A program made the position numbers and the translations under genes. DNA of 16,119 bases, from positions 1-16,119 of the IMG/VR virus record IMGVR_UViG_2526164619_000006; one strand, given 5' to 3'. The DNA is from a virus (taxonomy: Duplodnaviria > Heunggongvirae > Uroviricota > Caudoviricetes). Positions 8,276-16,119 of the stretch are shown here, in pieces (the stretch's first letter is position 1; every line of letters begins with the position of its first letter). A model generated the notes under the pieces. It was not told the origin of the DNA. It was given only the letters and a program-made list of their open reading frames with translations, and did not search any database.

Positions 8276-8502
8276 TATCGCGTCCTCAACAATGAATTTT
8301 GTGATGCAGTGCCTTGTGCCTCCAGGTGACGTTAACCAGTTAACAATTAACGCCGGATTAGTTGATGCTCGTTACGCCCGTAAAATACCGCCTTACTGCT
8401 TTAACTGTTCCGCGTGCGCATAGCCGCATTCACCGCATCACAAAATTGGTAATGCTGCCAACTTACTGATTTAGTGTATGATGGTGATTTTAAGGTGCTT
8501 GC

Positions 8503-8778
8503 GTGGCTTCCATTTCCATCAGATGTCCTTCCTGCTCCGCTACTGAAGGCGTGGTGCGTAACGGCAAAAGCACTGCCGGATATCAGCGCTATCTCTGCTC
8601 TCATTGCCGTAAAACATGGCAACTACAGTTCACTTACACCGCCTCTCAGCCCGGTACGCACCAGAAAATCATTGATATGGCCATGAATGGCGTCGGATGT
8701 CGCGCCAGTGCACGCATTATGGGCGTTGGCCTCAACACGGTTTTACGTCACTTAAAAAACTCAGGCCGCAGTCGGTAA
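8503..8778 (+). CDS. insA: IS1 InsA
   Basis: GTG start; [40 protein letters not shown].. is a variant of IS1 InsA. Confidence 0.9.
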
Positions 8779-9200
8779 CCTCGCGCATACAACCGGGCAG
8801 TGATGTGATTGTCTGCGCTGAAATGGACGAACAGTGGGGCTACGTCGGTGCTAAATCACGTCAGCGCTGGCTGTTTTACGCGTATGACAGGATACGGAGG
8901 ACGGTTGTGGCGCACGTCTTCGGTGAACGCACTCTGGCCACACTGGAGCGTCTTCTGAGCCTGCTGTCGGCCTTTGAGGTCGTGGTATGGATGACGGATG
9001 GCTGGCCGCTGTATGAATCACGCCTGAAGGGAAAGCTGCACGTTATCAGCAAGCGTTACACTCAGCGCATTGAGCGACATAATCTGAATCTGAGACAACA
9101 TCTGGCAAGGCTGGGACGGAAGTCACTGTCGTTCTCAAAATCGGTGGAGCTGCATGACAAGGTCATCGGGCATTATCTGAACATAAAACACTATCAGTAA
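8697..9200 (+). CDS. insB: IS1 InsB (expressed as InsAB' by -1 frameshift)
   Basis: 167-aa ORF matching IS1 InsB (..[42 protein letters not shown]..). Confidence 0.88.
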
Positions 9201-9241
9201 GTTGGAGTCATTACCATCAGAACGGTAAATTTCGTTACTGC

Positions 9242-9598
9242 ATGCCGGGCGATAATTTACCAGCAGAGCCGAAAGCCGCGCTGGTAACGGAAAGTGATGG
9301 TAAGGCCTTTCCTCAGCCAGCAGGTGCTGCGTTACCAGGCCGGGAAGCCGCAACACAGGAAGAAATTAAAACAGAAACTGTGGCGGACATTGTGCAGTCG
9401 TTGCAATCGTTTACCGAAACGCAAGCAGATGAGCTGATTTTTCCGTCCCTGCGCAGGGCAAACCTGGCGCTGCGCAGGGCGAAAAGTGATGTTCAGAAGT
9501 GGGAGCGAGTCTGCGCCGCGCTGCGGGAGCTGAACAAGCACCGGGATATTGTTCGACAGATTACTGATTCTTCCCGCCGTGTTGTATCGGAAAAGTGA
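9242..9598 (+). CDS. Hypothetical protein, possibly a 5'-truncated gene remnant abutting IS1
   Basis: 118-aa ORF with plausible protein composition. Its frame is open back to the IS1 junction at 9216. Confidence 0.35.
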
Positions 9599-9613
9599 TT
9601 GCCGGAGGCGCTT

Positions 9614-9832
9614 ATGGCAAAAGTATTTACACAAGAAGAGCGGGAAAAAATTAAAGGGCAGGTTGTTGAGCTAGTACGCCGGAGTGGGCGCGAGACGTTA
9701 CGGCAACTGGAAGCCAAGACAGGTGCGACAAGATATCTGATGAGCGTTCTTGCCAGAGAGCTGGTTGCCAGTGGCGATGTATACGACTCTGGTTACGGGT
9801 TATTCCCGTCTGAACAGGCGCGTAAGGACTAG
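9614..9832 (+). CDS. Small hypothetical protein (72 aa), possibly DNA-binding
   Basis: Strong RBS (GGAGG 5 nt upstream of ATG 9614). Sequence MAKVFTQEEREKIKGQVVELVRRSGRETLRQLEAKTGATRYLMSVLARELV.. Confidence 0.5.
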   Translation: MAKVFTQEEREKIKGQVVELVRRSGRETLRQLEAKTGATRYLMSVLARELVASGDVYDSGYGLFPSEQARKD

Positions 9833-10192
9833 CAAAATGCTCGCAAAAAACTCTCAAGGGCAAAGGTGAAGAAACCTGTTGTGGTTGATCCGGGCCTTAT
9901 CTGGACATTACCCGACGGAGAAATACGCCGCTACGACAGGCGTATGAACATAATCTGTCGCGAGTGCCGGAAGAGCGAAGCTATGCAGCGTGTACTGGCA
10001 TTTTATCAAGGAAATGTTAGGTATTTTAGACGTTACTAGATTAAAGAGCATTAGTTCAGATGTGAATTGACATTTTCATGGCGCAGGGTAGAGCCAGCGT
10101 GGTTGTCCGCTTTGCGTCAAAACCAGATATTACCAGATTTAGACATATATTCCCGATAGCCCTGCTCTGATGCTACACTCTGTGCTATTTTC

Positions 10193-10879
10193 ATGACCCC
10201 AATAAAAATATTTATGACTATTGCTGATTTCAAACGGCCTAAATTGGAGCTCCCAAACGGGGCAAACAAACTACTACTGCACTCTTGCTGTGCTCCATGT
10301 TCCGGTGAAGTGATGGAGGCGCTTCAGGCCTCGGGAATCGACTACACCATCTTTTTCTACAACCCGAACATTCATCCTCAGAAAGAGTATTTAATTCGTA
10401 AGGATGAAAATATTCGCTTTGCTGAACAACACGGCGTGCCGTTTATCGATGCTGATTACGACACAGACAACTGGTTTGAACGAGCCAAAGGAATGGAATG
10501 GGAGCCCGAACGAGGGATCCGTTGCACCATGTGTTTTGACATGCGTTTTGAGCGGACAGCGCTGTACGCCGCTGAAAATGGTTTCAGTGTGATCAGCAGT
10601 TCACTGGGCATTTCACGCTGGAAAAATATGCAGCAGGTTAACGAGTGTGGGCGGCGAGCTGTTGCGCATTATCCGGGTATGGTGTACTGGGATTATAACT
10701 GGCGCAAGCAGGGCGGCTCGTCCCGTATGATTGAAATCAGCAAGCGCGAAAAATTCTATCAGCAGGAATATTGTGGCTGTGTGTATTCTCTGCGCGATAC
10801 CAATCTACACCGCAAATCTCAGGGACGCCCTCTTATCAAAATTGGCCAACTCCACTACGGAAAAGAAGAGAAGGAGTGA
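10193..10879 (+). CDS. queH: DUF208 / QueH-like protein (epoxyqueuosine reductase family)
   Basis: Intact 228-aa ORF with [36 protein letters not shown] and EYCGCVYS, which I recognise as the conserved QueH signature motifs. An extended -10-like TGcTACACT lies at 10171..10179. Confidence 0.7.
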
Positions 10880-10989
10880 TTTTATGGATCACCTTTCTGA
10901 TTGATTTCATATTGGCGAGGTGACGTGAGTTAAGTAGAATGGCTGCGTGAACCGCCCCGGGTTTCCTGGAGAGTGTTTTATCTGTGAAC

Positions 10990-11876
10990 TCAGGCTGCCA
11001 GATCATCGTTTCCGATGGAAGCATAATAAGCTTTTTCTGCTTCTGCCGGAGGAGTATGGCCCAGCCTTTCCAGCAATCGTCGATTGTTATACCAGTCCAC
11101 CCACGTGAGTGTGGCCAGTTCCACTTCTGCACGGTTTTTCCAGCTCTTACGGTGTATTACCTCCGCTTTGTAAAGACCATTGATGCTCTCCGCCATCGCG
11201 TTGTCATACGAGTCGCCTGTACTTCCTGTTGATGCCAGTAATCCGGCTTCCTTAAGCCGCTGTGTGTAGGCCAGCGATACATACTGAGAACCTTTATCAC
11301 TGTGATGGACCGTGCCGGACGGTCGACGGGCCCATAACGCCTGCTCCAGTGCATCCAGCACGAATGTCGTTTCCATGGACGATGAGACCCGCCACCCCAC
11401 GATGTATCCGGCAAACACATCAATGATGAACGCCACATAGACGAAGCCCTGCCATGTGCTGACGTAAGTAAAATCAGCCACCCACAGCTGGTCAGGTCGT
11501 TCTGCCACGAACTGACGGTTTACGCGGTCGCCTGCGGCAACGGCTTTCCGGCTGATGGTCGTACGGACCTTTTTACCCCGGAGAACACCGGCAAGTCCCA
11601 TAACCGCCATGAGACGTGCCACAGTGCATCTGGCCACTCTGATACCTTCCCGTAACAACTGACGCCAGACTTTACACCGTATACCTTGTGATTTTCATCG
11701 TATACGCGCTGTATCTCTTTCTTCAGCCAGTCATCGCGCTGCGCACGGGCACTGCGTTTATCCGGATGATGTCGCTGTTGCTGACAGTGGTAATACGTTG
11801 ACGGGGCAATATGCAGTTCGCTGCATAGCGGTCCGACCCCGTACTGCTCACGCAGCTTATCCAGCAGTGGCATCAT
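10990..11876 (-). pseudogene. IS629-like OrfB, frameshifted
   Basis: OrfB homology is split between track ORFs 11520..11876 ([29 protein letters not shown]..) and 10990..11658 (..[21 protein letters not shown] region) in different frames, overlapping around 11520..11658. Confidence 0.75.
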
Positions 11877-15225: not shown

Positions 15226-15347
15226 ATGCCCAAAATCGCGTCAGTACAGTAAACACGCTGGTGGTTGCGAATACGGGTCTTTCAGCTTGCTGGCTTTTTC
15301 GACAAGAGTTATTGGTATGTCACGTTAACCGGAAAAAGTAAAAAGAC

Positions 15348-15545
15348 ATGCTAAAACAGCAGGATATGACAGAAACCGCCAGAGTGGTGTTTAATGAATT
15401 AAGCGTTACCGAACCGGCGACAGTCGGGGAGATAGCGCAGAATACTTACCTTTCACGCGAACGCTGCCAGTTAATACTGACCCAGCTGGTTATGGCGGGT
15501 CTGGCAGACTATCAGTTCGGTTGTTACAGACGCCTTCCGCAGTGA
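15348..15545 (+). CDS. Small hypothetical protein (65 aa), possible winged-helix DNA-binding
   Basis: Track ORF; segment TVGEIAQNTYLSRERCQLILTQLVMAGL resembles an HTH recognition region. Weak RBS, so the start is uncertain (alternative ATG 15366). Confidence 0.35.
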   Translation: MLKQQDMTETARVVFNELSVTEPATVGEIAQNTYLSRERCQLILTQLVMAGLADYQFGCYRRLPQ

Positions 15546-15559
15546 AGGCTTTTTTATTT
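15532..15559 (+). terminator. Rho-independent terminator
   Basis: gccttc-cgcagt-gaaggc hairpin followed by ttttttattt; it overlaps the stop codon of the 15348..15545 ORF. Confidence 0.55.
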
Positions 15560-15572
15560 GTGGTAAATGGGC

Positions 15573-15603
15573 GGCTGGTGGGTGTTAGGGGCACCCACCA
15601 GCC
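15573..15603. repeat. Perfect 12-bp-stem inverted repeat (hairpin)
   Basis: ggctggtgggtg / ttagggg / cacccaccagcc. No T-tract follows on either strand. Confidence 0.6.
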
Positions 15604-15644
15604 ATCTGCTCATGCGTTGGGTTCACAAGCAAAGCTCAGGCCCA

Positions 15645-15663
15645 CTGCTTTGCGCAAAAGCAG
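15645..15663. promoter_or_regulatory. Palindrome ctgctttgcgcaaaagcag, candidate operator ~35 bp upstream of the methyltransferase start
   Basis: 7-bp arms ctgcttt/aaagcag around a gcgca centre. Confidence 0.35.
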
Positions 15664-15695
15664 AATGAGCCTATCAGAGACAGGCTTAATGATTC

Positions 15696-15920
15696 ATGCT
15701 TAATACTGTAAAAATATCCAGTTGTGAGTTAATCAACGCCGACTGCCTGGAATTTATCTGGTCGTTACCCGAAAATTCTGTTGACCTGATAGTCACGGAC
15801 CCGCCGTACTTTAAAGTGAAGCCTGAGGGCTGGGATAACCAGTGGAAGGGCGACGATGATTACCTGAAGTGGCTGGACCAGTGTCTGGCGCAGTTCTGGC
15901 GGGTGCTGAAACCTGGGTAA
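15696..15920 (+). pseudogene. Beta-class DNA methyltransferase (N6-adenine or N4-cytosine), 5' fragment truncated by IS1
   Basis: Motif IV DPPY (LIVTDPPYF) lies near the N-terminus. The ORF stops at a TAA supplied by the IS1 terminus after 73 native codons. Confidence 0.75.
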
Positions 15921-16119
15921 TGACTCCAACTTACTGATAGTGTTTTATGTTCAGATAATGCCCGATGACCTTGTCATGCAGCTCCACCGATTTTGAGAAC
16001 GACAGTGACTTCCGTCCCAGCCTTGCCAGATGTTGTCTCAGATTCAGATTATGTCGCTCAATGCGCTGAGTGTAACGCTTGCTGATAACGTGCAGCTTTC
16101 CCTTCAGGCGTGATTCATA
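15916..16119 (-). mobile_element. IS1, partial (runs off the window), inverted relative to the IS1 at 8448..9215
   Basis: Starts ggtaatgactccaacttactgatag.. and by eye is identical to the reverse complement of the insB-end of the first IS1 copy. Confidence 0.9.

Follow-up and report, generated by a model that had tools for sequence, protein, structure and literature searches.

The region studied here lies in the 16,119-nt viral sequence IMGVR_UViG_2526164619_000006, referred to below as the window, meaning the whole stretch at its full length. The window corresponds to the last 16 kb of draft contig AKMY01000016.1 (87,668 bp; assembly GCA_000268165.1) of Shigella flexneri K-315, which is listed from Bangladesh (table in PMC6397287). 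Two copies of the insertion sequence (IS) IS1, designated IS1-1 and IS1-2, stand there in inverted orientation on either side of 6.7 kb of prophage genes, and IS1-2 interrupts a DNA methyltransferase gene. The features concerned are the following, where IRL and IRR denote the left and right terminal inverted repeats, ORF an open reading frame and L032 a prophage locus on the closed chromosome CP026839.1.

8439-8447, left flank of IS1-1, cacaaaatt; left edge of the deletion, equivalent to L032 4831
8448-9215, plus strand, IS1-1, a complete IS1 of 768 bp (repeat search; PF03811, PF12759, PF03400)
8448-8470, IRL of IS1-1, sequence GGTAATGCTGCCAACTTACTGAT
8503-8778, insA, 91 aa (PF03811 and PF12759)
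8697-9200, insB', 167 aa (PF03400, E=1e-74)
8754-8760, A6C frameshift motif of IS1-1, read in the sequence
9193-9215, IRR of IS1-1, sequence GGTAATGACTCCAACTTACTGAT
9216-9224, right flank of IS1-1, atcagaacg; right edge of the deletion, equivalent to L032 9603, within the DUF1627 gene
15696-15920, plus strand, phage N6/N4 DNA methyltransferase ORF of 74 codons (PF01555, profile positions 1-46 of 221)
15916-16119, minus strand, IS1-2, inverted, the IRR-proximal 204 bp, ending with the draft contig

The initial annotation had described the IS1 at 8448-9215 and the partial IS1 from 15916 as inverted and identical over 204 bp, and the repeat search agreed with this: the arms 9012-9215 and 15916-16119 were 100% complementary over 204 nt and lay 6700 nt apart. 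The IRR of IS1-2 begins at 15916, so that both IRR ends point toward the block. A perfect repeat of 204 nt is beyond chance, yet it is part of a multi-copy mobile element, and because contig ends in repeats can reflect a consensus of genomic IS1 copies the identity says little about the IS1-2 copy itself. IS1-1 showed the size and terminal repeats of its family (23-24 nt, imperfect, 88% match), insA and insB' with the A6C motif, and the InsA zinc-ribbon, helix-turn-helix and IS1 DDE domains. Comparison of its two flanks, cacaaaatt (as had been read in the sequence before) and atcagaacg, revealed no 8-9 bp target duplication, which is missing because IS1-1 sits at a deletion junction. A 73-aa ORF on the minus strand (8401-8622) starts with TTG within IS1-1 and crosses the IRL into the flank; it has been recorded as a gene by gene callers and is most likely a gene-calling artefact.

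The best E. coli matches of the window were lambdoid prophages adjoining ompW (loci L001 and L002), while the closest relatives in the phage collection were named PPompW prophages and the late regions of Shiga toxin (Stx) phages; coverage of the window was at most 60% in every E. coli complete genome searched. The main reference was the closed 4.27-Mb chromosome CP026839.1 (loci L018 and L032), which was reached through a look-up of the truncated DUF977 protein and whose prophage agreed with the window at 98.7-99.8% identity over the segments that could be aligned. The gene order in the reference prophages is int, xis, exo, DUF1482, dicB, immunity region, replication genes, DUF1627, DUF977, QueH, hok, DUF968, rusA, Q, a 65-aa ORF, DNA methyltransferase and tRNAs.

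Alignment with L032 revealed that window positions 7957-8447 correspond to L032 4341-4831 and that the window from 9216 onward corresponds to L032 from 9603 onward, on the same strand and at 99.4-99.8% identity, and thus 4,771 bp (L032 4832-9602) are replaced by IS1-1. A similar result was obtained with L001, where window 7449-8447 matched 6124-7113 and 9216-10947 matched 12019-13750, leaving a gap of about 4.9 kb. In both L001 and L032 the left flank runs on as CACTTTAAAAAGGG into the immunity region. The L032 segment 4832-9602 contains DUF1391 and a number of small ORFs, a CI-like repressor of the S24-peptidase type, a gene resembling P22 Cro, a replication gene of the IstB/DnaC-like kind, accompanied in L032 by an IS629 copy, and the 5' part of DUF1627. 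A single IS stands at the junction, contiguous ancestral DNA is gone and no duplication is present; the position of IS1-1 is the pattern of an IS1-associated deletion. Lost with it were the immunity genes (repressor and cro), those for replication and the 5' part of DUF1627. We infer that it proceeded by one of two routes with the same end product, either an adjacent deletion promoted by one IS1 copy or recombination of a direct pair of IS1 copies.

The block itself (9216-15915) was colinear and co-oriented with the left arm of the prophage, as it is in L001, L002 and L032, and these alignments identify it as native lambdoid (PPompW-type) prophage DNA, neither moved nor inverted. This bears on the proposal that IS1, block and IS1 form a composite transposon of the Tn1681/Tn9 type which was inserted as a unit. 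Two copies of the same IS do flank a passenger segment, both of the IS1 ends that face outward look intact (IRL at 8448), and InsA and InsB' of IS1-1 are intact. The passenger, however, is not foreign but belongs to the prophage, whose gene order and orientation it keeps beside the prophage's left arm, and relatives show two separate empty sites and not one site joining the outer flanks. IS1-1 is without a target duplication and marks the 4.77-kb deletion, and its left flank leads in relatives into the immunity region and not to anything beyond the methyltransferase. The unit was found at no other locus or replicon, with no second copy among the 5,426 E. coli genomes and 72,556 plasmids searched. 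Naming the left junction of IS1-1 J1, the IS1/DUF1627 junction J2 and the methyltransferase/IS1 junction J3, exact look-up of junction-specific proteins placed J1 only in K-315, and J2 and J3 only in K-315 and one further assembly. Unit transposition would also show the 9-bp CACAAAATT at the outer end of IS1-2; it is largely refuted and was rejected, on the grounds that the block is native to the prophage and that a relative has each of the two sites empty on its own, and we give it hardly any credence. Of the composite-transposon-like arrangement proposed in the initial annotation, the two inverted IS1 copies bracketing 6.7 kb stand while the transposed unit does not.

The orientation of the block also decides on a second origin of the pair, in which one intramolecular replicative transposition of IS1 made the second, inverted copy. 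Duplicative inversion is documented for replicative IS elements and gives an inverted IS pair around a segment with no simple duplications, and the lack of a duplication at IS1-1 would agree with it. It would, however, invert the bracketed segment, and the orientation of the block relative to the left arm is the native one; the loss of 4.77 kb would be left unexplained as well. The explanation was rejected because the block is not inverted, and is very improbable. Being inverted homologous repeats, the two copies are in principle the substrate for inversion that they had been suggested to be: the pair could recombine to invert the block, or could move via the outer IRL ends as in Tn1681. No sign of inversion or of movement as a unit was seen, however, as the contig spans IS1-1 in the native configuration and the block keeps its native orientation. 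It is highly doubtful that the pair is an active unit, either a Tn1681-like composite mobilising the hok/QueH/Q segment or an invertible 6.7-kb segment; if it were, flipping of the 6.7 kb would change the read-out of the late-regulatory genes of the prophage.

IS1-2 lies at codon 74 of the methyltransferase gene. The truncated ORF comprises 73 native codons followed by one altered codon and a stop from the IS1 end, while the uninterrupted methyltransferase is 349-352 aa long in relatives. In L032 the site is empty and an intact 352-aa methyltransferase gene reads ...GCTGAAACCTG/CCGGAAGTC... across it, the slash marking the site; the site is likewise uninterrupted in six Logan contigs, which match the window at 99.6-99.8% identity as far as 15915. 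ERR6006294 and ERR200336 are examples of sister isolates with empty sites. The reverse complement of 15898-15915 is CAGGTTTCAGCACCCGCC. We infer an independent insertion, in opposite orientation to IS1-1, into codon 74. A simple insertion of this kind predicts an outer junction reading ...GGCAGCATTACC/TGAAACCTG/CCGGAAGTCTTTACC, and with a 9-bp duplication it was computed to fuse the frame reading out of the IRL in frame to the remainder of the methyltransferase, through the same out-reading frame as that of the 73-aa ORF at 8401-8622. A homologue search with the predicted IS1-antisense::methyltransferase fusion returned ordinary methyltransferases only. P0001 and P0002 were considered as fusion proteins and rejected, both being ordinary methyltransferases. 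A scan of the species-representative genomes for the IRL followed by 6-12 nt and the downstream methyltransferase sequence gave 0 matches, and J3 was present in no E. coli complete genome searched.

Contig AKMY01000016.1 stops one base past the window end, inside IS1-2, as determined by alignment to the fetched locus. The window therefore stops at a draft contig end within a high-copy repeat, a position in which a chimeric contig end could have produced the terminal IS1 fragment as an assembly artefact. The same methyltransferase/IS1 IRR junction, however, was identified in assembly GCA_049894805.1 (locus L004), which also carries the IS1/DUF1627 junction (locus L016) and whose contigs end 73-74 nt into IS1. 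The recurrence of J2 and J3 in this second assembly indicates that the junctions are real, and an assembly chimera was rejected on this ground as scarcely credible.

IS1-2 might instead be the breakpoint of a further deletion or of a large IS1-mediated rearrangement, with DNA beyond it other than the methyltransferase remainder. IS1-1 marks just such a junction elsewhere in this prophage, IS-flanked rearrangements are described as common in Shigella (PMC8072062), and the predicted fusion proteins were not found. No positive evidence points to a breakpoint, however; the failed look-ups have trivial explanations (a contig break, another start codon, a single amino-acid difference), and among the five further complete IS elements that were examined, four proved to be simple insertions. 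We consider a breakpoint possible but unlikely.

Taken together, the data point to a decaying lambdoid (PPompW-type) prophage of S. flexneri K-315 in which IS1 acted twice, separately and in situ, with an IS1-associated deletion at IS1-1 and an insertion at IS1-2, the composite look of the pair being a coincidence of proximity; we assign this interpretation a probability of roughly 0.85. Several points weigh against it. The outer (IRL) side of IS1-2 lies past the contig end, and the simple insertion with TGAAACCTG duplication is deduced from the inner side. Six predicted fusion or partial proteins were not found by exact look-up, in which a contig break or a one-residue difference would hide a match. 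L032 has IS insertions of its own, and the deletion in K-315 could be 3.46 kb and not 4.77 kb if the extra IS629 was absent. Lastly, the IS1-1 and IS1-2 events may have come in either order.

In Shigella reference chromosomes, each with 229-348 IS insertions, IS1 makes up 46-73% of the total (Hawkey et al. 2020, PMC7373316), and near-identical IS1 copies are found within a genome because each Shigella lineage expanded its own resident IS1 allele (PMC7373316). With 105-254 IS1 copies in 4.3-4.8 Mb, a rough Poisson estimate under random placement gave 8-38 inverted IS1 pairs at most 6.7 kb apart per genome, and the arrangement is thus expected many times in each genome. The feature, a pair of IS1 copies in a prophage that is dead and full of IS elements, is ordinary for Shigella and already understood, and its likeness to a composite transposon is structural only.

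Four further IS elements were identified in the window, together with the integrase pieces left by one of them.

1-918, minus strand, 305-aa C-terminal integrase piece
about 939-2364, IS4, duplication of about 11 bp (agcttctgctg), splitting the integrase gene
2348-2557, minus strand, 69-aa N-terminal integrase piece
3512-4760, IS911, duplication CCG, splitting the exonuclease gene
5820-7083, IS600, duplication CAG, splitting the exonuclease gene; orfB split (55-aa and 159-aa ORFs)
10948-12253, minus strand, IS629/IS1203 (IS3 family), duplication GCG, between QueH and hok; orfB split into two ORFs

Precise empty sites were found in relatives for IS911, IS600 and IS629, the last of these being empty in L001. 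Among the complete IS elements of the window only IS1-1 has no duplication, in keeping with its place at a deletion junction. As a control, the IS1 that L032 has in its rusA gene (15759-16526), oriented like IS1-2, is flanked by the perfect 9-bp duplication TGCCTTACC. The IS629 copy of the window is probably inactive, to judge from its split orfB. K-315 and CP026839.1 carry IS600, IS911 and IS1 at different places and have a common site only for the IS629 between QueH and hok, and this indicates that IS activity went on independently after the two lineages had split. The IS629 of CP026839.1 (L032 11602-12856) is itself interrupted by IS911, giving a nested arrangement. The 823-aa exonuclease (YdfE/Rv2179c-like) gene at window 2857-7806 lies in pieces through IS911 and IS600. 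In the source contig the gene beside int codes for an ABC-transporter permease (BPD_transp_1), while in the E. coli relatives it is ompW.

Domain matches bore out the gene content given earlier for the block (QueH, hok, DUF968, rusA, Q and the truncated methyltransferase). The initial annotation had left out the DUF1627 remnant, the DUF977 remnant and the IS629 at 10948-12253. Besides the methyltransferase ORF and IS629 listed above, the block carries:

9242-9598, plus strand, C-terminal remnant of DUF1627, 118 aa against 256 aa in relatives (PF07789, profile positions 49-155)
9614-9832, plus strand, truncated DUF977, 72 aa against 141 aa in E. coli prophages
10193-10879, plus strand, QueH (epoxyqueuosine reductase) homologue, apparently intact (PF02677, E=1e-65)
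12369-12581, plus strand, hok-family toxin gene, 70 aa (PF01848)
13029-14084, plus strand, DUF968 gene, 351 aa (PF06147)
14085-14450, plus strand, rusA Holliday-junction resolvase gene, 121 aa (PF05866)
14447-15136, plus strand, late antiterminator Q gene, 229 aa (PF06323)

DUF1627 is full length (256 aa) in loci L018 and L019. CP026839.1 and a small number of Logan and ENA contigs have a truncated DUF977 protein identical to that of the window, and this sharing identifies the truncation as an older pseudogenisation marking this prophage lineage. The Q gene of L032 is truncated to 120 aa. Three Logan contigs, L009, L010 and L011 (positions 1413-1727), representing some sister isolates, carry an uninterrupted methyltransferase gene with a premature stop at codon 105 (tryptophan to stop), which indicates that the methyltransferase was inactivated there independently and by a different route.

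The prophage is an example of how IS1 expansion dismantles Shigella prophages, with the immunity/replication module deleted and the integrase, exonuclease and methyltransferase genes interrupted, and it also shows why draft Shigella contigs stop within IS copies. In practice, two inverted IS copies near the end of a contig are not to be taken for a composite transposon without an empty-site comparison in relatives; beyond correct annotation the importance of the feature is small.

Comparison with known systems places the locus as follows. Tn9 is an IS1 composite with direct arms and Tn1681 one with inverted arms. The window shares with them two IS1 copies around several kb, the arms being inverted as in Tn1681, but differs in that the passenger is resident in its native place, that no second copy was found in the genomes and plasmids searched and that the left arm marks a deletion. 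IS1-promoted adjacent deletions are known from the classical gal-region cases in E. coli; here likewise one IS copy is kept, contiguous DNA beside one end is lost and no flanking duplication is present, and since only the product is observed here, recombination between direct IS1 copies would look the same. As an element, IS1-1 shares about 99.3% identity with an IS1 of a related chromosome and differs from the IS1 of E. coli and Shigella in nothing material, save the absent 9-bp duplication. With the PPompW-type prophages and the Stx late regions the window shares the gene order DUF1627, DUF977, QueH, hok, DUF968, rusA, Q and methyltransferase, while six IS elements and one deletion have left its own copy heavily degraded. 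With IS1, IS4, IS600 and IS911, four of the five IS types expanded in Shigella (PMC7373316), together with IS629, all within 16 kb, and with the integrase, exonuclease and methyltransferase genes disrupted, the window is a typical example of the IS expansion and prophage decay described for Shigella and shows no difference from it.

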